Source: Candidatus Wildermuthbacteria bacterium (lineage in GTDB: Bacteria > Patescibacteriota > Minisyncoccia > Minisyncoccales > PEYH01). From it: a DNA stretch of 56,710 nucleotides. Position numbers and translations under genes: made by a program. The notes under the pieces are model-generated. The model searched no databases. It saw only the letters and a list, made by a program, of their open reading frames with translations, and was not told where the DNA came from. Shown piece by piece: positions 35,775 to 56,710 of this stretch. Position 1 is the stretch's first letter. Every line of letters starts with the position of its first letter. The DNA lies in contig JBBIKX010000002.1 of the NCBI GenBank assembly GCA_037445205.1, forward strand, positions 1 to 56,710, written 5' to 3'.

Positions 35775-35801
35775 ACAATAAAATTATAAATTCTAATATC
35801 T

Positions 35802-35896
35802 AAATCCCAAACAAATTCAAAATTATTTAATTCTATTTTTTTCTTTTTGCGTTTTACATTGTAATTTTGCATTTTGAGATTTGCATTTTGCGTTTT
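35802..35896. repeat. Intergenic composite of the heptamer-mosaic repeat family (A-rich arm 35802-35824, T-rich arm 35847-35896)
   Basis: aaatcccaaacaaattcaaaatt is the exact reverse complement of leuS 40126-40148. The T-rich arm, ttgcgttttacattgtaattttgcattttgagatttgcattttgcgtttt, resembles the ileS inserts. Confidence 0.85.
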
Positions 35897-37168
35897 CTAA
35901 TGTGTTGCACAGCTAATGCATGGATCATATGCCCTGATAAGCATTTTTATTTTTCTCTCTTTTTCTTTAATATTCATTTTTTTAAGCCCGGGTAAAAATA
36001 ATTTTAAATCATTTTCCAGATTCTCCAGAAACTGGGCTGTCGGAGTAATAATTATACAATCTCTTATAACTCCTCTCTCGTCAATTTTATATATGTGAAA
36101 AAGGATGCCTCTGGGCGCCTCTATCGCAGCCACCCCCCAATTTGCTTTCTGGGGACGGGGCGATTCTTTTATGACCATATCTTTTTCGCTGTAGCTTCCT
36201 TTCAAAAAAATATCTGAAAGCTTTTGGAACTCTTCTAAAAAATGAATCAATTCTACCGACTGGGCAAAAACGTTGTGAAAAATATTATAATCTATTTCTG
36301 ATCCGAAGAACTGGTCAGCGATTTCCCCCGAAAGAGGATTAAGCTGTCTTTTATTGTTGTTGATGCGAGCCAAGGCGCCCACCATATAGCTTTGGCCCCT
36401 GTAATGTCCTCTTTTTACAACATCAAAGGGCGATTGAATTTCCGTTATTTTGGGCAAAAAACTTTTTATTTCTAAAGGATCTGCGTCTGAAGCGTCAATT
36501 TTACCATCATAAAATCCGTATTCGTTTTTTTCGCTCAGGGAAACAAATTCTGTTTTCCTTTGAAAATCCGGATAGGGAAGTTTTTTAAAAATTTTTGACA
36601 GAGAAATCGCATCTTTGAGGACAATCTTACACTTAGCCTGAAGTTCCTTTAATTTATCTATATCGGGCATCCTCCCAAATCCGCCGATCTTTGTGTTGGT
36701 TGTATGAATGGCTCTGCCTCCTATTGTTTCCACAAGACTATCAGAAAAAGCCCTGATATTGTTTGCCTGTTTCGTTTCTTTTTTTAATTTCTCTGTAAGC
36801 TTAATGCTTTCATCTGCCTTAAAATAATCAGGAAGGGTTAAAAAAAATAAATGCAGAGAGTGGCTTTGAATAATTTGGCCTATTAAAAGCATTTTGCGGA
36901 GAATTTTCACGCCCTCCGAAACTTTTATTTCCATTGCATCTTCCATCGCTTTAATGGAGCATAAATTATGGACTACGGGACAAATCCCGCAAATCCTTGA
37001 GGTGATCAGGGGTGCTTCATCATAATATCTGTCGATTACAATGCCCTCAACCAATCTGGCGCCCTGCCCTACTTCCAACTTAGCTTTTGTAACATTGCCC
37101 TTCAATATATGGCCGACAAAACCCATATGTCCTTCAATTTTTGCTATATGGTCAATGGTAATTTTCAT
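35897..37168 (-). CDS. [NiFe]-hydrogenase large subunit (group 3-like, 423 aa)
   Basis: N-terminal RICGICPVVH and C-terminal DPCISCATH Ni-Fe ligand motifs, and ITIDHIAKIEGH at the start. Confidence 0.9.
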   Translation of the reverse strand: MKITIDHIAKIEGHMGFVGHILKGNVTKAKLEVGQGARLVEGIVIDRYYDEAPLITSRICGICPVVHNLCSIKAMEDAMEIKVSEGVKILRKMLLIGQIIQSHSLHLFFLTLPDYFKADESIKLTEKLKKETKQANNIRAFSDSLVETIGGRAIHTTNTKIGGFGRMPDIDKLKELQAKCKIVLKDAISLSKIFKKLPYPDFQRKTEFVSLSEKNEYGFYDGKIDASDADPLEIKSFLPKITEIQSPFDVVKRGHYRGQSYMVGALARINNNKRQLNPLSGEIADQFFGSEIDYNIFHNVFAQSVELIHFLEEFQKLSDIFLKGSYSEKDMVIKESPRPQKANWGVAAIEAPRGILFHIYKIDERGVIRDCIIITPTAQFLENLENDLKLFLPGLKKMNIKEKERKIKMLIRAYDPCISCATH

Positions 37169-37925
37169 AATTTTTTTTTGTTTTTTGGCGAAATTCGTCT
37201 AAAAGGCCAAAAATCTCAAGCTTTTCTTCTATTTCTTTTTGGCTGGCAAACCTTTTTAATGATTTTTCCATTACAAACAAGTCGGAATCTTTTTTAAAAT
37301 CCCTGCAGGCAAGACAAAGCAAATCATTTTTAGGGCAGGGCGCTTGACATCCTCCCAAAACCCAAGGCCCAAAACATATCTTTTTCTGCAAAAGAAAACA
37401 TTCCTGTTTTCCAACGCGCGGGCATTCCTGGCAGACAGAAATTTGCCTGATTTTGGGCGTTTTTTTAGAAACAAGCTGGTTAATAACCGTTAAAAACTCT
37501 TCCGGATTTATGGGGCAGCCCGGAATAGTGAAATCAACTTTTACAAAATTATCTACTTCTCTGATTTCCGGATTGGCAATGCTCTTGTCATTTTTGTATA
37601 TTCCTCTAATAATCCTGTCTTTATCGCGATAATTTTTAATCTCCTGCACTCCTCCAAGAGCGGCGCAATTTCCAAGCACTATAAAAAGTCTGGATCTTTT
37701 TCGCGCTTCTTTTAATATCTTCATCTGCTTTTGGGTGATAGGCGTGCCTTCAGCAAAAACAACGTCAAATTTTTTGGGCCAATCTTTATCTTCAAGATAG
37801 CTGAATTCCAAAAACTCAACGTTTTTGTTTAAATCCAGCAATTTTTTGCCCAAAGTCAAAATGGCAATTTGGCAGCCTTCGCAAGAAGTTAAAGAAACGA
37901 TCCCTATTTTAAGTTTTTTCTTCAT
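37152..37925 (-). CDS. [NiFe]-hydrogenase small subunit (group 3 delta-like) with Cys-rich C-terminus
   Basis: SLTSCEGCQ, LGNCAALGG, IPGCP and C-terminal CQECP...C...C...CQAPCP...CLAC cluster ligands. Confidence 0.85.
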   Translation of the reverse strand: MKKKLKIGIVSLTSCEGCQIAILTLGKKLLDLNKNVEFLEFSYLEDKDWPKKFDVVFAEGTPITQKQMKILKEARKRSRLFIVLGNCAALGGVQEIKNYRDKDRIIRGIYKNDKSIANPEIREVDNFVKVDFTIPGCPINPEEFLTVINQLVSKKTPKIRQISVCQECPRVGKQECFLLQKKICFGPWVLGGCQAPCPKNDLLCLACRDFKKDSDLFVMEKSLKRFASQKEIEEKLEIFGLLDEFRQKTKKNYENYH

Positions 37926-37943
37926 AGAAAGAGAGGGGGAGAA

Positions 37944-38630
37944 TTATCGCTCTCCCCGGGCGTTTTCGTGTTTGATGGCGTCAAGGGTGTATTGTTTAAG
38001 AATTTCTCTCTGATGGGGGCTTATCGCCTGACAGATTATGCCGCGATGAATAGTTACAATATCTCCGAAGGATACAACCGGGCCTATCCTAATCTCGCGC
38101 GGCATAACTTCTGTTCTTGGACAAATCTTCAACGCAAGCCGCCCGTTCCTATAGACAATCTCGCAAAGATTGTCTATGCGGACTGATTCATCGTCAATTC
38201 GGGAAACTTCTGCCCAGCGCACGATACAGCGGTTGATGGCGAGAAGAGTTTCTGTTTGCTTTGACAGCTTATGTCTTGATAGAAGAACCTGATGGTTGTG
38301 GTGTGGCGAACCATTGGGCTTATTGTCTCTCCTTGGGAAGGATTTATCGGTGAGATCATTGCCGACAAAATATGCCTCAACCACATCTTGGGATAGAGGA
38401 TCTTTCTTGGCGTTATCTCCGATTAAACGGAGAAAGTGGCCGGCGTTGGGCAATGCAAGAATTACCTTTCGCGCAAGAATTGCCCTTTTCTTGCCGGAAC
38501 AAGCCAGGAAATTCTCTACTTCCAAAACACCGCCAGCCTGCACAGCACAGGCGCCATCCCTTAAGGGCCCCAGAACATAACGTCCGGCAAGCGCAAGTCC
38601 CCGCATATCTCCTCCTTTTTGCGCCGTCAT
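37944..38630 (-). CDS. GC-rich hypothetical protein embedded in the hydrogenase operon; C-terminal third is weakly HypC/HupF-like
   Basis: 228-aa ORF whose ATG overlaps the hypC stop (ATGA). An alternative start at 38606 follows aaaggaggag. The region RCIVRWAEV...GDIVTIHRGIICQAISPHQREILKQY parallels HypC MCLAIPYKV...DFVLVQNNAIIKKLTKKEAKETL. Similarity was judged by eye only. Confidence 0.6.
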   Translation of the reverse strand: MTAQKGGDMRGLALAGRYVLGPLRDGACAVQAGGVLEVENFLACSGKKRAILARKVILALPNAGHFLRLIGDNAKKDPLSQDVVEAYFVGNDLTDKSFPRRDNKPNGSPHHNHQVLLSRHKLSKQTETLLAINRCIVRWAEVSRIDDESVRIDNLCEIVYRNGRLALKICPRTEVMPREIRIGPVVSFGDIVTIHRGIICQAISPHQREILKQYTLDAIKHENARGER

Positions 38631-38833: not shown

Positions 38834-41569
38834 TTAAACGACGAAATTGATTACTTTGTCTTTGACAAAGATTGTCTTTTTGATTTCTTTTTTATTGAGC
38901 CATTTTTGGATCTTGGGCGATTTTAAGACGATTTTTTGGGCTTCATTTTCGGAAATTCCAGCCGATGTCTCAATTTGATCCCGCACCCTTCCATTAACTT
39001 GCGCTACTAAAACCACCTTTTCATCTTCTATCAGCTCCTGATCATATTCCGGCCAACTTTCTTTAAAAATTGACTTGATTTGTTTGGGATTTGGAATTTG
39101 TGATTTGGGATTTGTTTGGAATTTGGAATTTATGATTTGGGATTTGCCGAGGAGTTGATGCAACTCCTCGGATATGTGCGGCGCGAATGGCGCCAATAGC
39201 CTAACTAACAACTCGCAATCTACAACCGATAACTCCTTTTCTTTCTCCATTTCGTTGACAAGCTCCATTATCGCGGCAATGGCAGTGTTGAATTTTTGCG
39301 CCTCAATATCTTGGGTAACCTTTTTAATTGTCTTATGAATTAATTTTTTAATTTTTTGATTTTGGATTTTTGATTTTTGATTTGTCTGGAATTTAAGATT
39401 TAGGATTGCGGATTTTTCAAAAAGTCGCCAAATTTTTTGAAGAAACCTCTGCGCTCCCAAAATCCCCTGCGAATCCCATGCAATCGGCTGATCAAAAGGC
39501 CCCATAAACATTTCATAAATTCTGAATGTATCAGCCCCGTATTTTTCAATAATTTCATCCGGGTTAATTACATTGCCCCGTGATTTGGACATTTTCTGGC
39601 CATCGGGCGCCAAAATAAGCCCGATTGTTTTTAATTTAGAAAACGGCTCTTTAAAGTTGATTATTTTGGAGTCGTATAAAGCTTTTATCCAAAAGCGGGC
39701 GTATAAAAGATGCAAAACCGCATGTTCTGCTCCCCCCACATAAAAATCCACCGGCAACCAGTATTTCAATAATTTCGAACCACCGCCCTTTTTCAAAAGG
39801 ACGGGGCCCAGCTCATCTGTAGATGGGCTGTGGTTTTGGATTTTAGATTTTGGATTTGAGCTTACGCAGTAGGCGATGAAGTACCAGCAAGATCCGGCCC
39901 ATTGAGGCATCGTGTTTGTCTCCCTTATCGCTTTGCCGTTGCATTTCGGGCATTTTGTTTCCTTCCAATCTTTAACTGCGGACAGCGGCGACTCACCCGT
40001 GCCTGTTGGCTGATATTTCTCAACTCTTGGAAGTTCAAGGGGCAGCTCTTTTTCCGGCAATGCCACCCATCCGGGATTTAACAATTCTCCTAGGTGAAAC
40101 TCTAAATTTTGAATTTTGAATTTTGAATTTTGAATTTGTTTGGGATTTGTAATTTGTAATTTGTAATTTTTTACTGTTTTTTCGCAATTTCCGCAAAAAA
40201 CAAGCGGGATCGGCTCTCCCCAATATCTTTGACGGGAAAAAATCCAATCGCGCAGCTTATAATTCACTGCTTCTTTAGCCAGATTTTTTTCGGCCAACCA
40301 TCTCGTTATTTCTTTTTTTGCTTTTTCGCTTTTTATCCCGTCAAAATTTCCTGATTTCATGAGAATTCCCTCTCCCTCATAAGCCCCATTATTTTTTTTT
40401 GAATTTTGGATTTGGAATTTAGACGGCCTTATAACTTCAATGATTTCTATGTTATATTTTTTAGCAAACTCATAATCTCTTTTATCGTGCGCCGGCACTC
40501 CCATAATGGCGCCGTACCCATAAGATAGCAAAACATAATCAGCGATATATATAGGGATTTTTTTCTGATTCGCCGGATTTATGGCTTTTATTCCTTCTAT
40601 TTCAACCCCTGTCTTGTCTTTTATTCCAGCAATCCTTTTTCTTTCTGTTTTCTTTTTTGCCTTTTTAAGATATTCTTTAACCTCCTCTATATTTTGGATT
40701 TTGGATTTTGGATTTTTGAAGAGCGAGGCAACGAATTCGTGTTCCGGAGCCAAAACTAAAAAAGTTGCGCCAAAAATCGTTTCCGGTCTTGTGGTGAACG
40801 ATTTGATGAATTCTTTTGAATTTTCAATTTGAGATTTGTAATTTATTTTGGCTTTGGAATTTATAATTTGAAATTTTATTATTGCTCCTTCTGATCTCCC
40901 TATCCAATTCCTTTGCATTTCTTTAATCTGTTCCGGCCAGTCCAATTTATCCAATCCCTGTAACAATTTCTCTGCATAATCGGTAATTCTTAAGACCCAT
41001 TGTTCAATTTTCTTTTTAACGACTGCCGCTTGGCACCTCTCGCATTTGCCGTCAATCACTTCCTCATTTGCCAGCCCGGTTTTGCAGGAAGGGCACCAGT
41101 TAATCGGCAGATTTGCCCGATAAGCCAGACCTCTTTCAAATAATTTGAGAAAAATCCATTGCGTCCATTTATAATATTCTGGGTCAGCAGTGGAAATCTC
41201 CCGCGACCAGTCATAGGAAAGCCCGATTCTTTTCATCTGCTCTTTGAATCTCTTAATGTTTTGCTTTGTGGTAATTTCGGGATGAATGCCTGTTTTTATG
41301 GCATAATTTTCTGCGGGCAGGCCAAAAGCATCCCAGCCCATGGGATGTAAAACATTATATCCTCTCATTCGCATATAATGGGCAATGACATCTGTTCCGA
41401 TATATCCTCGCGGGTGACCCACATGAAGTCCGGCGCCCGAAGGATAAGGAAACATATCTAAAATGTAAAGTTTTGGCTTTTCGGAATTGTCTTTTGCCTC
41501 AAAAATTCTTTCCTTTTCCCAAAGTTTTTGCCATTTTAACTCTATGTTTCCAGGGTCGTAACTCTTCAT
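38834..41569 (-). CDS. leuS: Leucyl-tRNA synthetase carrying seven in-frame low-complexity inserts
   Basis: HIGH-type GLHVGHPRGY, QKMSKSRGN and editing-domain and Zn-module motifs; 911 aa. Confidence 0.95.
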   Translation of the reverse strand: MKSYDPGNIELKWQKLWEKERIFEAKDNSEKPKLYILDMFPYPSGAGLHVGHPRGYIGTDVIAHYMRMRGYNVLHPMGWDAFGLPAENYAIKTGIHPEITTKQNIKRFKEQMKRIGLSYDWSREISTADPEYYKWTQWIFLKLFERGLAYRANLPINWCPSCKTGLANEEVIDGKCERCQAAVVKKKIEQWVLRITDYAEKLLQGLDKLDWPEQIKEMQRNWIGRSEGAIIKFQIINSKAKINYKSQIENSKEFIKSFTTRPETIFGATFLVLAPEHEFVASLFKNPKSKIQNIEEVKEYLKKAKKKTERKRIAGIKDKTGVEIEGIKAINPANQKKIPIYIADYVLLSYGYGAIMGVPAHDKRDYEFAKKYNIEIIEVIRPSKFQIQNSKKNNGAYEGEGILMKSGNFDGIKSEKAKKEITRWLAEKNLAKEAVNYKLRDWIFSRQRYWGEPIPLVFCGNCEKTVKNYKLQITNPKQIQNSKFKIQNLEFHLGELLNPGWVALPEKELPLELPRVEKYQPTGTGESPLSAVKDWKETKCPKCNGKAIRETNTMPQWAGSCWYFIAYCVSSNPKSKIQNHSPSTDELGPVLLKKGGGSKLLKYWLPVDFYVGGAEHAVLHLLYARFWIKALYDSKIINFKEPFSKLKTIGLILAPDGQKMSKSRGNVINPDEIIEKYGADTFRIYEMFMGPFDQPIAWDSQGILGAQRFLQKIWRLFEKSAILNLKFQTNQKSKIQNQKIKKLIHKTIKKVTQDIEAQKFNTAIAAIMELVNEMEKEKELSVVDCELLVRLLAPFAPHISEELHQLLGKSQIINSKFQTNPKSQIPNPKQIKSIFKESWPEYDQELIEDEKVVLVAQVNGRVRDQIETSAGISENEAQKIVLKSPKIQKWLNKKEIKKTIFVKDKVINFVV
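39074..39142 (-). repeat. Heptamer repeat insert 7 in leuS (encodes SQIINSKFQTNPKSQIPNPKQIK)
   Basis: Plus strand reads cttgatttgtttgggatttggaatttgtgatttgggatttgtttggaatttggaatttatgatttggg. Confidence 0.9.
39347..39400 (-). repeat. Heptamer repeat insert 6 in leuS (encodes NLKFQTNQKSKIQNQKIK)
   Basis: Plus strand reads ttttttgattttggatttttgatttttgatttgtctggaatttaagatt. Confidence 0.85.
39833..39859 (-). repeat. Heptamer repeat insert 5 in leuS (encodes SNPKSKIQN)
   Basis: Plus strand reads gttttggattttagattttggatttga. Confidence 0.85.
40103..40174 (-). repeat. Heptamer repeat insert 4 in leuS (encodes VKNYKLQITNPKQIQNSKFKIQNL)
   Basis: Plus strand reads (aattttg)x4, atttgtttgggattt, then (gtaattt)x3. 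It contains the 23-mer shared with 35802-35824. Confidence 0.9.
40394..40423 (-). repeat. Heptamer repeat insert 3 in leuS (encodes SKFQIQNSKK)
   Basis: Plus strand reads tttttttgaattttggatttggaatttaga. Confidence 0.85.
40691..40717 (-). repeat. Heptamer repeat insert 2 in leuS ((AAAATCC)n, encodes KNPKSKIQN)
   Basis: Plus strand reads attttgg attttgg attttgg attttt. Confidence 0.9.
40814..40873 (-). repeat. Heptamer-mosaic repeat insert 1 in leuS (encodes FQIINSKAKINYKSQIENSK)
   Basis: Plus strand reads ttgaattttcaatttgagatttgtaatttattttggctttggaatttataatttgaaa, made of NNATTTN 7-mers. Confidence 0.8.
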
Positions 41570-43549: not shown

Positions 43550-44299
43550 TTATTCCAGGGCAAGTTTGGCAAATTTTTTAATCTCACCTTTATATTTCAC
43601 CCAATTCTCAATAAAATCCCTGCAACCCTGTTCGTCGCCCATTATTTTAAGCAAAAATTTTCTCTCAGTCAGCGAGGGAAAATTCTTTTTGCCAAGATAG
43701 TCAAAATAGCTGGACCATCTATATTCTTCTTCTAAAAATTTAATTACTCTGTTTGGATTATTAATTCCAAACTCTTTCCATTTCGGTTCTGTGAAAGAAA
43801 TCGGATTAGCATGAATATACACAAAAACAGTTTTTAACTGCTCGTCGGTTTTAATATGGACGGCAGTAAATCTTCTGAGAAGAAGAGGGCCCTGGCGCCC
43901 ATATTTCCTATTGAAATATCCTCCGTAGCCAGTGTTAAGCTTTATCATAAACCTGATAATCCCCCTATCTTTAATTTGACGCAGAAGCAAATGAAAATGG
44001 TTTGGCATAATACAAAAAGCTAAGATCTCTACCAATTTATCCCTTAAATCAACAGAGGTTGGGCCTCTGTTGACTTCTTTTAGAAAATCCTGTTCTGCTT
44101 TTTTAATTTGGGTTTTTATTTTACTCCGCTCTTTCCGCCGCTCTCTAATTACCACTGGATTAGCATTGTTGAATTCATAGATGGAAAAAATCGCCCGATA
44201 ATTATCATCAGTGTCTTTAAAAAGCAAATTATCATCAATCCCCTTTATAACAATATGATAAATCTCATTATTAACAAATTGTTCTTTTCTATAAGGCAT
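43550..44299 (-). CDS. IS200/Y1-type (REP-associated tyrosine transposase, RAYT-like) transposase
   Basis: HUH motif MPNHFHLLL and catalytic Tyr context VYIHANPI; flanked by REP-like hairpins. Confidence 0.8.
   Translation of the reverse strand: MPYRKEQFVNNEIYHIVIKGIDDNLLFKDTDDNYRAIFSIYEFNNANPVVIRERRKERSKIKTQIKKAEQDFLKEVNRGPTSVDLRDKLVEILAFCIMPNHFHLLLRQIKDRGIIRFMIKLNTGYGGYFNRKYGRQGPLLLRRFTAVHIKTDEQLKTVFVYIHANPISFTEPKWKEFGINNPNRVIKFLEEEYRWSSYFDYLGKKNFPSLTERKFLLKIMGDEQGCRDFIENWVKYKGEIKKFAKLALE
44053..44069. repeat. REP-like hairpin, copy 2 (cagaggttgggcctctg), inside the RAYT coding sequence (encodes NRGPTSV)
   Basis: The 17-mer is identical to copy 3. Confidence 0.8.
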
Positions 44300-45299: not shown

Positions 45300-45373
45300 T
45301 GCACACCTCCTGTAGTTCATCCCGCCATCAGCGGAACACGCGCCTGTTGGTCAACAGACAGAACTTGTCTCCC

Positions 45374-45434
45374 TATGAGACGAGCCCGTTGAAGACCCAC
45401 CGTGAGAAAGGACATTCAATGGGCTCGTCTCATA
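45374..45434 (-). promoter_or_regulatory. Perfect 14-bp stem (tatgagacgagccc/gggctcgtctcata) with a 33-nt loop in the 5' leader of the GC-rich gene
   Basis: The arms are exact reverse complements. The stem lies between the predicted promoter and the SD site. Confidence 0.6.
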
Positions 45435-45463
45435 CATATAAAAGAGCTCTTAAAGACTCTTGT

Positions 45464-45492
45464 ATGATAACATATTCTATTTCTTCTGTCAA
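45464..45492 (-). promoter_or_regulatory. Sigma70-like promoter (TTGACA, 17-nt spacer, TATCAT) overlapping the metG stop
   Basis: The minus strand reads ttgaca gaagaaatagaatatgt tatcat. Confidence 0.5.
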
Positions 45493-46943
45493 ATCCGAGG
45501 GAAAAGAGGACCGGTTTTTTTTGTTTTGAGTTGTTGGAGAATTTTTTCTGAGGTTTGGGGCAAAAACGGTTCAAGCAGTATGGCAATTTCTTTGATCGCT
45601 AACAATAAATTATTGATTGTTTTTTTCTGCTTGCCGGATTCTTCCCAGGGCCGCTCTTTTTCAATGTATTTATCGCAGAAAGCAATCAACTCCCAAATTG
45701 TAGTTAGTGCTTCATTGAACTTAAATTCCTCTATGACCTCTTTATAGTTCTTCCAAGTTTTATTTATTATTGTTTTGAGTTTTGAATTTTGGATTTGTTT
45801 AGGATTTAGGATTTGAGATTTGAGATTTAACTTGACGGCCACTGTAATTACCCTTGAAACAAGATTTCCCAAACCAGCCGCTAAATCGGCATTATATCTC
45901 TTCTTAAATTTATCGCAAGAAAAATCCAAATCGTCAAAAGGAGAGGCCTCTCTCAAAAGGAAATATCTGACCGCATCAACTCCGTATCTTGCGGCAAGAT
46001 CTTCGGGAGACACCACATTGCCCAAGGACTTAGACATTTTCTGGCCATTGGCCGTCACATAACCATGCACAAATAATTTATCCGGCAAAGAAATCCCAGC
46101 AGAAAGCAGGGCGGCCGGCCAATACAAAGAATGAAAAATCAAAATGCCTTTTCCAATGATATGCGTTTTATTCTGGTTTTCCTGCCACCAATCTTTGAAC
46201 CTTTTTTCATCTTCGCCATAGCCCAAAGCGCTGATATAATTGATTACCGCATCCCACCAGCACCAAAAAATCTGACCTTCATCACCGGGCACAGGAATAC
46301 CCCAATTTTTTGCTCGTCCTGAAGAGCGGGAAATACAGATATCTTCTAGCCCTTTGTTGATGAATCCCAAAACTTCATTTTTGCGCGATTGGGGGATAAT
46401 TTTTAAAACATCGCTTTCTATTAATTTTTTAAGCTTTTTTTCGTATTTAGAAAGCTTAAAAAAATAATTTTCCTCTTCAACCAGCTCCGGCGCGATTTTG
46501 TGCTCTGGGCAAAGCTTATCAGTCAATTCTTCTTCTTTATAAAATTGTTCGCACCCGACGCAATAAAGCCCTCTGTATTTTTTCTTATAAACGTCTTTTT
46601 TGCATCTCTCCCAAAGATTATAAACCGATTTAATATGCCTTTTTTCAGTAGTTCTAATAAAATCATCAAAAGAAAGGTTAAGAATTTCTTTTAATTTTAA
46701 AAAAGCGTCCGCGTTTTTTTTAGAGAATTTATCGGGTGAGATTCCCGCCTCTTCTGCCGCCCGCGCAATTTTTAAACCGTTTTCGTCTGTGCCGGTAAGA
46801 AAAAAAACCTCTTTTCCCAGCGCGCGATAATGGCGCGCCAAAACATCCGCCTGAATAAGTTCAAGGGCAAATCCGATATGAGGCAAGGAGTTAACATACG
46901 GCAGGGCGGTAGAAAAATAATATTTTTGATTATCTTTTGGCAT
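45489..46943 (-). CDS. metG: Methionyl-tRNA synthetase (short form) with one in-frame repeat insert
   Basis: LPHIGF (HIGH-like), QKMSKSLGN and the CVGCEQ...CPEH knuckle. Confidence 0.95.
   Translation of the reverse strand: MPKDNQKYYFSTALPYVNSLPHIGFALELIQADVLARHYRALGKEVFFLTGTDENGLKIARAAEEAGISPDKFSKKNADAFLKLKEILNLSFDDFIRTTEKRHIKSVYNLWERCKKDVYKKKYRGLYCVGCEQFYKEEELTDKLCPEHKIAPELVEEENYFFKLSKYEKKLKKLIESDVLKIIPQSRKNEVLGFINKGLEDICISRSSGRAKNWGIPVPGDEGQIFWCWWDAVINYISALGYGEDEKRFKDWWQENQNKTHIIGKGILIFHSLYWPAALLSAGISLPDKLFVHGYVTANGQKMSKSLGNVVSPEDLAARYGVDAVRYFLLREASPFDDLDFSCDKFKKRYNADLAAGLGNLVSRVITVAVKLNLKSQILNPKQIQNSKLKTIINKTWKNYKEVIEEFKFNEALTTIWELIAFCDKYIEKERPWEESGKQKKTINNLLLAIKEIAILLEPFLPQTSEKILQQLKTKKTGPLFPRI
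45774..45833 (-). repeat. Heptamer-mosaic repeat insert in metG (encodes KLNLKSQILNPKQIQNSKLK)
   Basis: Plus strand reads ttgagttttgaattttggatttgtttaggatttaggatttgagatttgagatttaac. It shares the NPKQIQNSK-coding module with leuS insert 4. Confidence 0.9.
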
Positions 46944-53880: not shown

Positions 53881-56710
53881 TTATTTATCTACTCTTTTTG
53901 CGGACAATCGTATTCTGTCGTTGCCAAGAAATGACTCTTTTAGAATATCATATCCTTCTCTTGGAATTTCAGAACAATATTTAATAGCATTAATTTTAGT
54001 ATGCAAAAGAATTGATTTCTGGCTTCTGATTATAATCTTTTTTATGGCTTCTGGCGATGCGATATACAGATCAACTTTGTCTTTGGGCGTATATCTGGCT
54101 CCCTTCCTCATATCCTGTATCAGCCGAATGATATCCCTTAAAATTCCCTCTTCTATGAGTTGAGGAGTCAGTTTTGTATTTAGCTCAAAATTTTTGCCAA
54201 AGGTAATTTTTTTAACGTTAATCTCTTCTTTGATAAGATCCAGCAGCTCTTTATTTTTTGCAAGTTCACGGTGAGTAATTTTTAATTCTTCCAGGGGCTG
54301 GCGCACTTTTATTTTATTTTGCGCTCTTTGAGCCAAAACTTTGCCAACGATTTCTCTTGCCTTGGCCATTTTTTCTTCAAGGCTTCTGTCAATCAGCCCT
54401 TTATTGACCCTTGGCCAATTTTCCAAATGAACGCTTTTGACCTTTGATTTTGCGTCAGAGATTCCCTTTGGGCGCAAAATATAGCTTTGATTTTGAAGAT
54501 TTTGATAAATTGCTTCGCTTAAAAACGGAATAAAAGGGGCGGTCAGCTTGATTATATCTGAAAGCAGCCGGAATAAAACAAGCGAAGCCTTTTCTAATTC
54601 TCCTTTGCTTTGTGGTTGTTGAAATCTTTTTCGTGAGCGTCTTATATACCACAAAGAAAAATCGTCTATAATAAAATCTTCTATCAGCCGGGCGGCAGAA
54701 GTAATGTCGTAGTTCTCTAATTTCTTTGTTGTCTCTGATACCAAATTATTAAATCTTGATAAAATCCATTTATCTAAAATATGAATTTTTGCTTGTTTGA
54801 ACGATTTTTCATTTTGTGCTTCATGTTTTCCGTTTTTGGCGTATGTTTCGTAAAAAACACAGCAGTTCCAAAGAGTAAGTATAAGTTTTCTAAAACTTTC
54901 TTCCACCTCTTTTTGAGAGAATATCTTCGATTCCCCGGGCTGATTAATAATGTAAAAATGCCATCTTAGGGCGTCTGACCCGCTCTTATCAATTATCTGC
55001 CAAGGATTAACGACATTGCCTTTTGATTTAGACATTTTTTCTCCTTTTTCATCTAAAATGTGACCCAAAGAAATAACGTTTTTATAGGGCGATTTAAATC
55101 CCAAAAGGGTGGAAATTGCCAGGAGCGTGTAAAACCATCCTCTTGTCTGGTCAATTGCTTCAGAAATATAATCGGCCGGAAATAATTCCGGGGGTTTCAA
55201 GCTTTGCATTTTACATTCTGCATTTTGCGTTTGAGCGCAAGCGAACGGGAAGTGAGCTTGCGCGAACGGCATTGCGCCCGAATCAAACCAGCAGTCAATA
55301 ACTTCCGGAACTCTTTTCATTTTTCCGTTGCATTTGGAACAGAAAAATTCAACTTCGTCAATATAGGGCCGGTGGAAATCAAGCTCGCCAGCCAAATTGT
55401 AGCCAAACTGTTTATATTCCCACTGCCGGTATTGTCCTGTGCCAAAATCCCATGCTTTTTGGGGGCTCATTAATTCCTCTTTTGCCCAGCCGAAAGACAA
55501 ACTTTCAAGCATCAAAAGGGGCAGTTTGTGGCTGACGATCAAAATGTTTTTATCCCCGTGATTTGTTTCAATCTCTTTTATGAAATCCAAGACCCTTTGT
55601 TTGACCTGAAAATAGTTCTCTCCTTTTGGAAATCCTTGCTGATATTTTTTGAAAAGTATTTCCTCTTTTTTCAGCTTGTTTGCGGGGTCAAAAAAATTAT
55701 CGCCCTCTTTTATGGATTTAGCGTTTAGTTCCCCCGTATCCAATTCTCTCAAGCGTGCATCGTAAAACGGTTTGATGCCCAGTGCTTCCCCGACAATCTC
55801 AGCTGTCTGTTTTGTTCTTAAAATGTCTGAAGAAAAAATAATGTCTATTTCTTCTTTTTTGAGAGAGCGAACCGCTTTTTCAACCTCTTTTTCTCCTTTT
55901 TTTGTAAGCGGAACTTGTTTTGCTTCTGGGAAAGAGGAATAAAAATTTTGCGCATTGGACACTGCTTCTCCGTGCCTTAAAAGAAAATATTTGTTAGTGC
56001 TGAATTTTTGTTTTTTCAAATCCTCTCTTGAGCCAATGACCTCTTGATGGCCGCATTGACCGCAATTCCATATTGGCAGCGGAGTGCCCCAATATCTTTC
56101 CCGCGAAAGCGCCCAATCTTTCAAATCGCTCAGCCACTCGCCAAATCTCCCGTCTTTTATATGTCCGGGGATCCAATTTATTTGCTGATTGTTTTCAATC
56201 AATTCTTTTTTAATCTGCGTTGTTTTTATATACCAGCTCAATTTTGCGTAATACAAAAGCGGGGTTTTACATCTCCAACAGAATGGGTAATCGTGTTCAT
56301 AATCTTTAACTCCAAATATTTTATTTTCGTTTTTAAGATGTTCTATAATCAGAGGGTCGGCTTTTTTTACAAACATTCCCGTCCATTTTCTAACTTCCGG
56401 CCCAAATTTTCCCTCTCCGTCAACGGTTAATAAAACTGGGAACTCCGGTTCTTTTTGCATTTTGCATTTTGCATTTTGCATTTTTATTAATTCCATATCT
56501 TCTTCTCCGAAGGCAGGAGCAATATGGACAAGGCCGGTTCCTTCTTGAGTGCTAACAAATTCTCCGGATAAAATCTTATAAATATTTTTAAATTCTTCTG
56601 GGAAAGAAAGCGTTTTTTCGTCAAAAATCGGCGCATAAGGCAGGCCGACCAATTTTTTTCCCTTTATCTTCCAAACTACCTCAAAATCATTGCCAAAAAT
56701 TTCTTTTCTT
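53881..56710 (-). CDS. ileS: Isoleucyl-tRNA synthetase; N-terminus lies beyond the window end; carries a nested histidine-phosphatase domain and two repeat inserts
   Basis: The reading frame stays open upstream of the track's TTG start (…RKEIFGNDFEVVWKIKGKKLVGLPY). Motifs include EKMSKSKGN, DCWFDSG, WALSRERYWGTPLPIW and the CxxC pairs. Confidence 0.95.
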   Translation of the reverse strand, partial: RKEIFGNDFEVVWKIKGKKLVGLPYAPIFDEKTLSFPEEFKNIYKILSGEFVSTQEGTGLVHIAPAFGEEDMELIKMQNAKCKMQKEPEFPVLLTVDGEGKFGPEVRKWTGMFVKKADPLIIEHLKNENKIFGVKDYEHDYPFCWRCKTPLLYYAKLSWYIKTTQIKKELIENNQQINWIPGHIKDGRFGEWLSDLKDWALSRERYWGTPLPIWNCGQCGHQEVIGSREDLKKQKFSTNKYFLLRHGEAVSNAQNFYSSFPEAKQVPLTKKGEKEVEKAVRSLKKEEIDIIFSSDILRTKQTAEIVGEALGIKPFYDARLRELDTGELNAKSIKEGDNFFDPANKLKKEEILFKKYQQGFPKGENYFQVKQRVLDFIKEIETNHGDKNILIVSHKLPLLMLESLSFGWAKEELMSPQKAWDFGTGQYRQWEYKQFGYNLAGELDFHRPYIDEVEFFCSKCNGKMKRVPEVIDCWFDSGAMPFAQAHFPFACAQTQNAECKMQSLKPPELFPADYISEAIDQTRGWFYTLLAISTLLGFKSPYKNVISLGHILDEKGEKMSKSKGNVVNPWQIIDKSGSDALRWHFYIINQPGESKIFSQKEVEESFRKLILTLWNCCVFYETYAKNGKHEAQNEKSFKQAKIHILDKWILSRFNNLVSETTKKLENYDITSAARLIEDFIIDDFSLWYIRRSRKRFQQPQSKGELEKASLVLFRLLSDIIKLTAPFIPFLSEAIYQNLQNQSYILRPKGISDAKSKVKSVHLENWPRVNKGLIDRSLEEKMAKAREIVGKVLAQRAQNKIKVRQPLEELKITHRELAKNKELLDLIKEEINVKKITFGKNFELNTKLTPQLIEEGILRDIIRLIQDMRKGARYTPKDKVDLYIASPEAIKKIIIRSQKSILLHTKINAIKYCSEIPREGYDILKESFLGNDRIRLSAKRVDK
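55201..55239 (-). repeat. Degenerate AAAATGC-type repeat in-frame in ileS (encodes CAQTQNAECKMQS)
   Basis: Plus strand reads gctttgcattttacattctgcattttgcgtttgagcgca, which resembles the T-rich arm at 35847-35896. Confidence 0.8.
55408..55998 (-). other. Histidine phosphatase superfamily (PGAM-like, RHG) domain inserted in-frame in ileS
   Basis: KYFLLRHGEAVSN (RHG), LTKKGEKEVEKA, IIFSSDILRTKQTAEIV (second Arg), RELDTGEL (Glu) and NILIVSHK (second His) occur in the canonical order over about 195 aa. Confidence 0.75.
56452..56484 (-). repeat. (AAAATGC)n heptamer repeat in-frame in ileS (encodes KMQNAKCKMQK)
   Basis: Plus strand reads tttttgcattttgcattttgcattttgcatttt. Confidence 0.9.

Follow-up and report, generated by a model that had tools for sequence, protein, structure and literature searches.

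The question raised by this locus is how the methionyl- and leucyl-tRNA synthetase genes (metG and leuS) of one bacterium came to encode the same peptide, NPKQIQNSK, and whether that peptide has a function. Both genes lie on a 56,710-nt stretch of a Candidatus Wildermuthbacteria contig, here called the window, which is a Patescibacteria (Parcubacteria-type) contig to judge by the names that the nearest MetRS and LeuRS relatives carry. An earlier note, made from the letters alone, took the peptide as the mark of a dispersed copy-and-insert element and raised the possibility that it serves as a tag on aminoacyl-tRNA synthetases (aaRSs). Our analysis indicates that the metG and leuS segments are probably sense, in-frame copies of one arm of a dispersed, A-rich, heptanucleotide-periodic repeat, carried as passengers in permissive loops and spread by copy-and-paste. 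The repeat forms a dispersed family whose copies are alike within a genome, present or absent at orthologous sites, quick to turn over and, where they lie in genes, filtered by frame and orientation.

The shared core and its repeat family

Read on the minus strand, metG positions 45774-45833 translate as KLNLKSQILNPKQIQNSKLK. The core of this segment, ttttgaattttggatttgtttaggattt when positions 45780-45807 are read on the plus strand, has its counterpart at leuS 40121-40148 (ttttgaattttgaatttgtttgggattt, encoding ITNPKQIQNSKFK), with 26 of 28 bases the same and the same frame in both genes; on these coordinates and peptides the earlier note was exact. A degenerate 28-mer pattern matched these two sites and no others in the window, and none in 100 dinucleotide shuffles. 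The window has four occurrences of the non-periodic junction CCNAAACAAAT, compared to 0.6 expected, and one of the four is intergenic and on the plus strand.

The arm of the family is about 60 nt long, A-rich and 7-base-periodic, with the form (AAATYCT / AAGCACG / AATATCT)x3-4 - AAATCCYAAACAAAT - (YCAAAAT)x1-3 - CAAATGACCAAAAC; as read in the flank comparison, the junction between the AAATYCT-type units and (YCAAAAT)x1-3 is AAATCCTAAACAAAT. An exact scan with the 22-mer AAATCCYAAACAAATYCAAAAT, run on one genome per GTDB species, returned at least 120 loci, and the matches listed in that scan are the basis of the figures given here for copies elsewhere. Their hosts belong to the Planctomycetota, Acidobacteriota, Chloroflexota, Desulfobacterota, Nitrospirota, Omnitrophota, WOR-3, Elusimicrobia, Bacteroidota and Gammaproteobacteria, and include many Patescibacteria, a closed Planctomicrobium genome and a halobacterial (archaeal) metagenome-assembled genome (MAG). 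The loci range in G+C content from 0.31 to 0.69, and the flanks of the 22-mer are conserved and 7-periodic. An nhmmer profile of model length 80, built from 107 arms of other genomes, matches the metG segment at E 4.3e-11 over model positions 7-65 of 80, and because it covers nearly the whole segment, what had been called an insert is one complete arm. The same profile matches leuS 40105-40168 at E 7.8e-9 and five further leuS sites more weakly.

A third copy in the window is intergenic and occupies positions 35781-35897, between a hypA-like open reading frame (ORF) and a NiFe hydrogenase large-subunit gene. Elsewhere, 14 of the 120 copies lie inside long ORFs and the rest (~90%) are intergenic, usually as an imperfect palindrome of an A-arm and a T-arm; adjacent arms run A-arm then T-arm in 38 cases and in the reverse order in 1, with 38 of 40 adjacent pairs inverted. 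The genes that flank intergenic copies are co-directional in 51 cases, convergent in 11 and divergent in 13, which is the unselected intergenic pattern, and the window pair forms no thermodynamically significant hairpin, folding no better than shuffled sequences (z = +1.08). A terminator or promoter role is not supported by these results, the ordinary flanking orientations arguing against it.

The surroundings of the intergenic pair include genes for the NiFe hydrogenase large subunit, its small subunit (Oxidored_q6) and a DUF6390 protein, together with the hypA-like ORF, at 35897-38630(-) between glmS and leuS. The scaffold of a relative has a run of N (L162:7510-7605) exactly at the position of the pair; short-read assembly seems to fail at the repeat.

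Identity averages 77% (and reaches 100%) between copies at separate loci of the same genome, compared to 64% between genomes; for the paired arms of a palindrome it is only 62%, no higher than for arms of different genomes. It follows from these identities that each arm tracks the family consensus, that the hairpin is not maintained and that copying within genomes occurs. Unlinked loci in one genome can be 95-100% identical, non-repeat flanks included, as in L011 and L079. At these two loci, both from one Desulfobacteria MAG, the heptad palindrome sits within a longer repeat whose outer flanks are near-identical and inverted (CTATAGTGAAAGTC...TTGACATAAAT), and in some genomes a larger, MITE-like unit may include the heptad palindrome.

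Sequencing depth tells of many more copies. In Logan contigs from the source subsurface metagenome, depth rises from 9.6x in the flanks to ~1500x over 45776-45809; in an unrelated hot-spring metagenome without this organism it reaches ~4600x over the core, with dozens of contigs sharing that stretch alone, and the increase over the core is 150- to 500-fold in the two metagenomes. An assembly or binning artefact, by chimeric joins at repeats or by collapse of foreign reads into aaRS genes, would be in keeping with so high a copy number in the community and with the gap in the relative's scaffold at the intergenic copy, but an independent Logan contig of the source run (2362 nt, 9.6x) spans 45300-46300 with zero differences, the host ORFs are all open, and relatives known from other assemblies have modules in the same places. 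We regard an artefact as hardly credible. Matching contigs numbered 6 among 2.9 million in IMG/VR; there were no matches among PLSDB plasmids and 1 weak match among GenBank phages, although the BLAST low-complexity filter may hide some. In substance, then, the proposal of a dispersed copy-and-insert element is supported by the third, intergenic copy, the match to the 107-copy profile, the likeness of copies within genomes and the rise in depth over the core.

Modules in the window and their turnover

The window's coding copies, or modules, and the other features discussed here are listed in Table 1. Period 7 is the sole strong short period in the window apart from one 12-nt array: 21-nt windows with at least 19 matches number 45 at lag 7, 0 at lags 3-6 and 8-11, and 17 at lag 12, the last all coming from that array, which is unrelated. 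At a strict threshold, period 7 is confined to leuS, metG and ileS. The 12-nt tandem repeat itself, CCGGAGGTATTA x3.6 with 96% identity, lies at 1283-1325 and has no relation to the heptamer family; its plus-strand translation would be (GGIT)n, within an ORF of 87 aa, no long ORF being listed there.

Table 1. Positions of host genes, modules and associated features in the window
Feature	Position	Strand	Description
metG	45489-46943	(-)	
metG module	45771-45833	(-)	One complete A-rich arm, in frame, encoding (K)LNLKSQILNPKQIQNSKLK(T); loop after the MetRS anticodon-binding helix
28-nt core common to metG and leuS	45780-45807	(-)	AAATCCTAAACAAATCCAAAATTCAAAA; peptide NPKQIQNSK
leuS	38834-41569	(-)	Product LeuRS, 911 aa
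leuS module 1	40814-40870	(-)	Residues 234-252, QIINSKAKINYKSQIENSK; 13-aa gap in most orthologues
leuS module 2	40688-40720	(-)	Residues 284-294, FKNPKSKIQNI, (CCAAAAT)x3.7; nhmmer E 0.022
leuS module 3	40394-40423	(-)	Residues 383-392, SKFQIQNSKK; editing-domain region; nhmmer E 0.019
leuS module 4	40103-40168	(-)	Residues 468-489, (TACAAAT)x3.6 - CCCAAACAAAT - (TCAAAAT)x4.7, encoding NYKLQITNPKQIQNSKFKIQNL
leuS module 5	39833-39859	(-)	Residues 571-579, SNPKSKIQN
Segment adjoining leuS module 5	39779-39832	(-)	54 nt, in frame, HSPSTDELGPVLLKKGGG
leuS module 6	39338-39400	(-)	Residues 724-744, NLKFQTNQKSKIQNQKIKKLI; nhmmer E 4.6e-4
leuS module 7	39071-39145	(-)	Residues 809-833, KSQIINSKFQTNPKSQIPNPKQIKS; duplicated partial arm with two CCCAAACAAAT junctions; nhmmer E 2.7e-5 and 1.2e-4; 21-aa gap in insert-free orthologues
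ileS	53881-56652	(-)	Continues beyond the window end
ileS module a	56449-56487	(-)	(TGCAAAA)x4.6, encoding IKMQNAKCKMQKE; kept in both relatives
ileS module b	55201-55233	(-)	QTQNAECKMQS, degenerate TGCAAAA units; this unit type also fills the metG site of L001
Intergenic A-rich arm	35781-35824	(+)	23-nt core AAATCCCAAACAAATTCAAAATT, the same as in leuS module 4; nhmmer E 2.1e-8
Intergenic T-rich arm	35843-35897	(+)	(TTTTGCA)-type heptamers; partner of the A-arm in the usual A-then-T order; nhmmer E 0.75
Y1 transposase-like ORF	43550-44299	(-)	IS200-like, 249 aa; 27.1 bits (cutoff 23); 95% identical in L001, where it directly follows metG

All seven leuS sites are missing in insert-free LeuRS orthologues of 776-792 aa, and relatives of an intermediate kind possess a subset, often built of other units. 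Module 4, which holds the 28-nt core, sits between the two CxxC pairs of a Zn-binding insertion, and short orthologues are without it. Compared to a relative whose leuS DNA is 94.4% identical, all 66 gap positions fall in module sites, and identity is 89% in the modules and 96% outside them. The two genes differ by the 54-nt segment adjoining module 5 and, at module 6, by a 12-nt indel and the relative's GCAAAGC/GCAAAAC units; at module 4 the 5' half differs, being homogenised to (TACAAAT)x3.6, and the 3' half is identical. In the AlphaFold model of LeuRS, whose mean predicted local distance difference test score (pLDDT) is 49 and of which only the confident C-terminal third was used, the sole dips in that third are at module 6 (721-736) and module 7 (814-829).

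Within the 54-nt segment, which the 94%-identical relative lacks, is an imperfect palindrome rich in G+C, CCGTCCTTTT..AAAAGGGCGG. Small G+C hairpins like it lie beside heptamer arrays at loci of other phyla (L003, L012, L066 and L106) and, in L129, L130 and L151, break up the MetRS module; the G+C hairpin may be a second type of small element that travels with the heptamer arms. The two ileS modules are both of the TGCAAAA type and common to both relatives (L001 and L002), and the IleRS of L002 has an extra 23-aa module, KNPKFQTNPKLKIQNPKK, that is missing in the window IleRS.

Could the modules have grown in place? In this explanation each is an independent local microsatellite, produced by slippage on A-rich seeds, and the likeness of metG and leuS is a convergence arising from mutational bias and from selection against stops and hydrophobic frames. 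Perfect tandem arrays such as (TCAAAAT)x4.7 and (TACAAAT)x3.6 are what it predicts, as are the unit homogenisation seen against the close relative and the different units at the metG site in relatives. Many arrays inside ORFs of other genomes, moreover, have unrelated units (AGTCCAA, AAGCTAA, CACCGAT), and PMC4679880 reports, from Mrazek et al. (2007), that heptanucleotide repeats are the commonest class of long simple-sequence repeats in prokaryotes, polymerase slippage being the proposed cause. Local growth does not, however, account for a shared non-periodic 8-mer junction, AAACAAAT, that recurs along with ordered, unlike units in at least 120 genomes and in the intergenic copy of the window, nor for the lengths of the leuS indels against the close relative, 54 and 12 nt, neither divisible by 7, nor for the near-identity of unlinked copies and their non-repeat flanks at L011 and L079. 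As a full account we find it unlikely. The earlier note had set dispersal against local microsatellite growth and chosen the former; dispersal holds, but the exclusion of local dynamics does not, and since unit homogenisation is seen, the choice is really both.

Reading frames and host proteins

Every coding module in the window is in frame and stop-free, and all indels are multiples of three. With these properties the modules are evidently translated, into low-complexity loops rich in Lys, Gln, Asn, Ser, Pro and Ile, which in this Parcubacteria lineage lie at the surface of the three class Ia synthetases. A removed intervening sequence, such as a mini-intron, an intein-like segment or a translational bypass, would be missing from the mature enzyme; it has no direct evidence in its favour, is considered because the segments are alien to the protein family, and seems to us highly improbable: stops are absent from all eleven coding modules although a given arm and frame is open in only 11-36% of cases, no Rfam intron family and no intein or Hint domain in Pfam was found, and the segments are 27-75 nt long.

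Among the 120 arms, the sense frames are free of stops in 18%, 36% and 34% and the antisense frames in 11-19%. The copies that lie in credible ORFs are all sense-oriented and use the frames KSQTN.. or NPKQI.., never the more hydrophobic ILNKF... This filter on frame and orientation means that a shared frame is just what tolerance would predict. The metG and leuS modules do share their frame, as the earlier note stressed, yet as an argument for common origin this is weak evidence, because few frames are open and ORF copies elsewhere use two of six.

In the window the hosts are exactly the three class Ia aaRS genes, 3 of 49 ORFs, for which 1/C(49,3) is ~5e-5 when reckoned post hoc; the period-7 scan found no modules in ClpB, NrdD, TopA, GlmS or the class II aaRS of the window. 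Elsewhere the core is hosted by three GT4 glycosyltransferases, each time in the linker between domains, and by an AddA/UvrD helicase-nuclease, TrmD, TopA, LepA, MnmA and an HNH endonuclease, and other heptamer arrays lie in two more GT4s, PBP2, a Wzy ligase, TatD, a ferredoxin-like protein, ValRS, LeuRS and a class II aaRS. An enrichment in aaRS genes is thus seen in the window, and the ValRS ORF of an unrelated MAG (L102:2341-5268(+)) has three arrays with AGTCCAA and CACCGAT units, but the diversity of hosts elsewhere means that the module is not specific to aaRSs; the large class Ia synthetases are recurrent multi-hit hosts all the same. The Wzy_C O-antigen ligase ORF (L073:6830-7999(-)) contains four different heptamer arrays, three of which are T-rich in sense and hence hydrophobic. 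Array orientation seems to be tied to host type, A-rich sense in soluble proteins and T-rich sense in membrane proteins.

The functional suggestion, that a Lys-rich module is selected as an auxiliary loop for binding tRNA or other nucleic acids, or as a tag by which synthetases and other enzymes of nucleic acids interact or are localised, draws on several of these facts. All coding copies of the window are in class Ia aaRS genes, arrays occur in the ValRS just mentioned and, at other loci, in a neighbouring LeuRS and a class II aaRS, and TrmD, MnmA, LepA, TopA and AddA/UvrD are among the hosts; the metG module starts 8 residues past the invariant N360/R364 helix, by homology the anticodon-binding one, and ORFs show only the two more hydrophilic sense frames, though the third is open equally often. 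Yet ~90% of copies are intergenic, many orthologues are without modules, and in-frame copies sit in glycosyltransferases (five GT4 ORFs), PBP2, TatD, an HNH endonuclease and, in T-rich hydrophobic frames, the Wzy O-antigen ligase. At orthologous sites neither sequence nor length is conserved, and modules evolve faster than their flanks. A dedicated aaRS tag is not supported by these observations, because in-frame copies are found in TopA, TrmD, MnmA, LepA, the AddA/UvrD helicase and glycosyltransferases as well as ValRS, and we think selection for the peptide quite improbable in general.

The synthetases that bear modules have also taken up whole domains. IleRS contains a complete histidine-phosphatase domain (His_Phos_1, PF00300; RHG motif) inside its catalytic body, at residues ~223-392, which is kept in L001:1-2959 and L002:1-3463. 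LeuRS relatives of 964-1087 aa (P0135, P0139, P0152, P0169, P0224 and P0226) have extra domains, inside or attached, of the NUDIX (PF00293), Ser_hydrolase (PF06821) or Abhydrolase_1 (PF00561) kinds and, in P0226, a Y1 transposase domain (PF01797). Such insertions in the module-bearing enzymes point to tolerance rather than function, and we read the class Ia synthetases as unusually insertion-tolerant.

The MetRS site

The metG segment had been described as a 60-nt insert. The segment is there, but it is not a clean insertion: a native variable loop is occupied, with a net gain of ~10 aa. Comparison of MetRS orthologues places the site in the variable loop after the anticodon-binding helix, which goes from 32 to 42 aa, and the peptide is not conserved in MetRS sequences that are 76-85% identical. 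In insert-free relatives (47-54% identical), the GLGN..R helix and the F-x-F motif are separated by 32 aperiodic residues, for which the lag-7 match fraction (p7) is ~0.23. In the clade of the window the loop is 36-54 aa long (42 in the window), p7 is 0.64-0.79 and the heptamer differs with the lineage, the site being filled by TKCAAAA in L001, by TCCAGAT in L002 and by a nested G+C hairpin in L129. The native loop of Aquifex MetRS (2CSX) at this place is only 4 aa shorter than that of the window.

In the MetRS model (mean pLDDT 68) the module falls between predicted helices 358-371 and 387-405 and starts past an invariant helix that bears N360 and R364, which we take to be the anticodon-binding Asn and Arg by homology (N391 and R395 in Escherichia coli). 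LeuRS and MetRS were called unrelated synthetases in the earlier note, which is incorrect, since both belong to class Ia; their two insertion sites are nevertheless not homologous.

Comparison with known repeats

The Rickettsia palindromic elements (RPEs) are selfish repeats found within protein-coding genes as in-frame insertions (Ogata et al. 2000, reviewed in PMC10969869). Like them, the window repeat is a short, dispersed, palindromic family with copies both in intergenic DNA and in frame in unrelated housekeeping genes, where the added peptide falls at positions that the fold can accommodate; both have dispersed copies inserted in frame in protein-coding genes that are unrelated to each other. 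RPEs, however, are ~100-150 bp long, restricted to Rickettsia and without heptanucleotide periodicity, and their peptide is fairly conserved, whereas the window repeat usually has a single arm of ~30-75 nt in an ORF, is 7-periodic and hypervariable and has one consensus across many phyla, which sets it apart from the RPE description.

In sequence type the closer match is with the cyanobacterial STRR and with the TAACTGA repeats of Beggiatoaceae, Cyanobacteria and Bacteroidetes, which are long heptanucleotide simple-sequence repeats (PMC4679880). Tandem 7-nt units, a mostly intergenic location, a scattered phylogenetic distribution, suspected horizontal spread and mixed heptamer arrays are common to them and the window repeat, which shows perfect tandem 7-nt arrays of 2.7-4.7 copies and a lag 7 that is unique among lags 3-11. 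STRR and TAACTGA have other units in plain direct arrays, in contrast to the ordered arm, non-periodic junction and inverted arms found here, and they are not reported to be marked by in-frame copies in essential genes. Expansion of one unit per locus was not seen in the window, the modules being ordered mosaics around a shared non-periodic junction, and the TAACTGA unit was not found, the window units being AAATYCT, YCAAAAT, TACAAAT and TGCAAAA. The window repeat works most like the RPEs and resembles STRR and TAACTGA in sequence type, and it is a member of neither.

Small mobile repeats are also represented by MITEs and by REP/BIME elements mobilised by RAYT (Y1) proteins (PMC3733652, PMC10969869). 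These too are small, non-coding, multi-copy inverted repeats of intergenic DNA, with copies more alike within a genome than between genomes. The A-arm/T-arm pairs do provide terminal inverted repeats, but the arms are long (~60 nt), periodic and poorly complementary (62%), and the folding of the window copy is no better than that of shuffled sequences. Neither a GTAG nor a CGTC head is present in the arm consensus, no target-site duplication or parent insertion sequence was found, and conservation across phyla is untypical of such elements. In Plasmodium, housekeeping proteins including aaRSs have Asn/Lys-rich low-complexity insertions. As in the window, these are hydrophilic, fast-evolving, apparently tolerated surface loops in conserved enzymes, encoded by A+T-rich DNA; they differ in being eukaryotic and in arising by local slippage of trinucleotide-type repeats, with no dispersed element that has an intergenic counterpart. 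Insertions in apicoplast aaRSs are mentioned in PMC6310243.

Searches for the element by name or sequence gave little. Rfam, at the gathering threshold, matched only tRNA and rRNA in the window and in nine element-bearing loci and holds no family for the element there. No published description was found in the literature on these DNA and peptide strings and on heptanucleotide repeats in these phyla, and the sole string match, (AATTCAA)3 upstream of jamI in Lyngbya, is incidental. A protein word-index search with a 45-aa synthetic module peptide gave 97 candidates, six of them hypothetical ORFs of 38-76 aa (E >=0.03), which were of no use in counting hosts, and phmmer with a 31-aa window-encoded module against 1.84 billion representatives gave 2 matches, both uninformative.

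Mechanism and counterevidence

Copies of the repeat would spread in a genome by copy-and-paste, either through transposition of a non-autonomous element or through repair or gene conversion templated by other copies. Heptamer slippage would add to this spread, which fits the heptanucleotide excess and the idea of polymerase slippage summarised in PMC4679880. Selection would then act as a filter, such that a copy survives only if its frame is hydrophilic and free of stops and it lies in a permissive loop of an insertion-tolerant protein. Turnover is quick and proceeds by unit homogenisation, segment replacement and in-frame indels. The encoded peptides would be passengers rather than a dedicated aaRS tag.

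Several observations weigh against copy-and-paste spread of passenger arms. Inspection of the copies revealed no target-site duplication, sharp element boundary or linked transposase: the outer ends of the arms fade into variable heptamers, and no recurrent duplication was seen. The Y1 transposase-like ORF of the window (Y1_Tnp, RAYT-like) was rejected as evidence of an association, since a homologue is present at only 1 of 126 unrelated loci; the ORF is not linked to copies elsewhere. The unrelated units of many in-ORF arrays in other genomes suggest that part of the phenomenon is generic heptanucleotide slippage and not the copying of one element, and the lack of the core at the metG site in relatives suggests that evolution in situ contributes there. 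Translation of the modules is read from their frame and their avoidance of stops, and the structure models are of low to moderate confidence. Finally, the window hosts are all class Ia aaRSs, the modules are Lys-rich and that of metG is beside the anticodon-binding helix; such loops may aid the binding of tRNA, though this is unsupported.

A wider interpretation, which we put forward tentatively and think rather doubtful, is that the arm represents an undescribed pan-prokaryotic repeat with one consensus from Patescibacteria to Planctomycetota, Acidobacteriota, Chloroflexota and a halobacterial MAG, spread or regenerated by a conserved mechanism and acting as a general source of new surface loops in essential proteins. 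The mechanism may be a new non-autonomous mobile element or templated 3'-end synthesis in break repair, and the latter would explain why the arms of a palindrome resemble the family consensus rather than each other.

Implications

There is a real chance that the underlying pan-prokaryotic repeat is undescribed, and its 60-nt consensus is alike in genomes of 31% to 69% G+C. The modules have practical consequences: they inflate and misalign protein families, they break assemblies, as at the gap in the relative's scaffold at the intergenic copy, and they give spurious small ORFs, the peptide searches having matched only hypothetical proteins of 38-76 aa. The window LeuRS is ~120 aa longer than its insert-free orthologues, largely through its seven module sites. 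If our interpretation is correct, dispersed repeat DNA is reshaping enzymes essential to translation in streamlined Patescibacteria.

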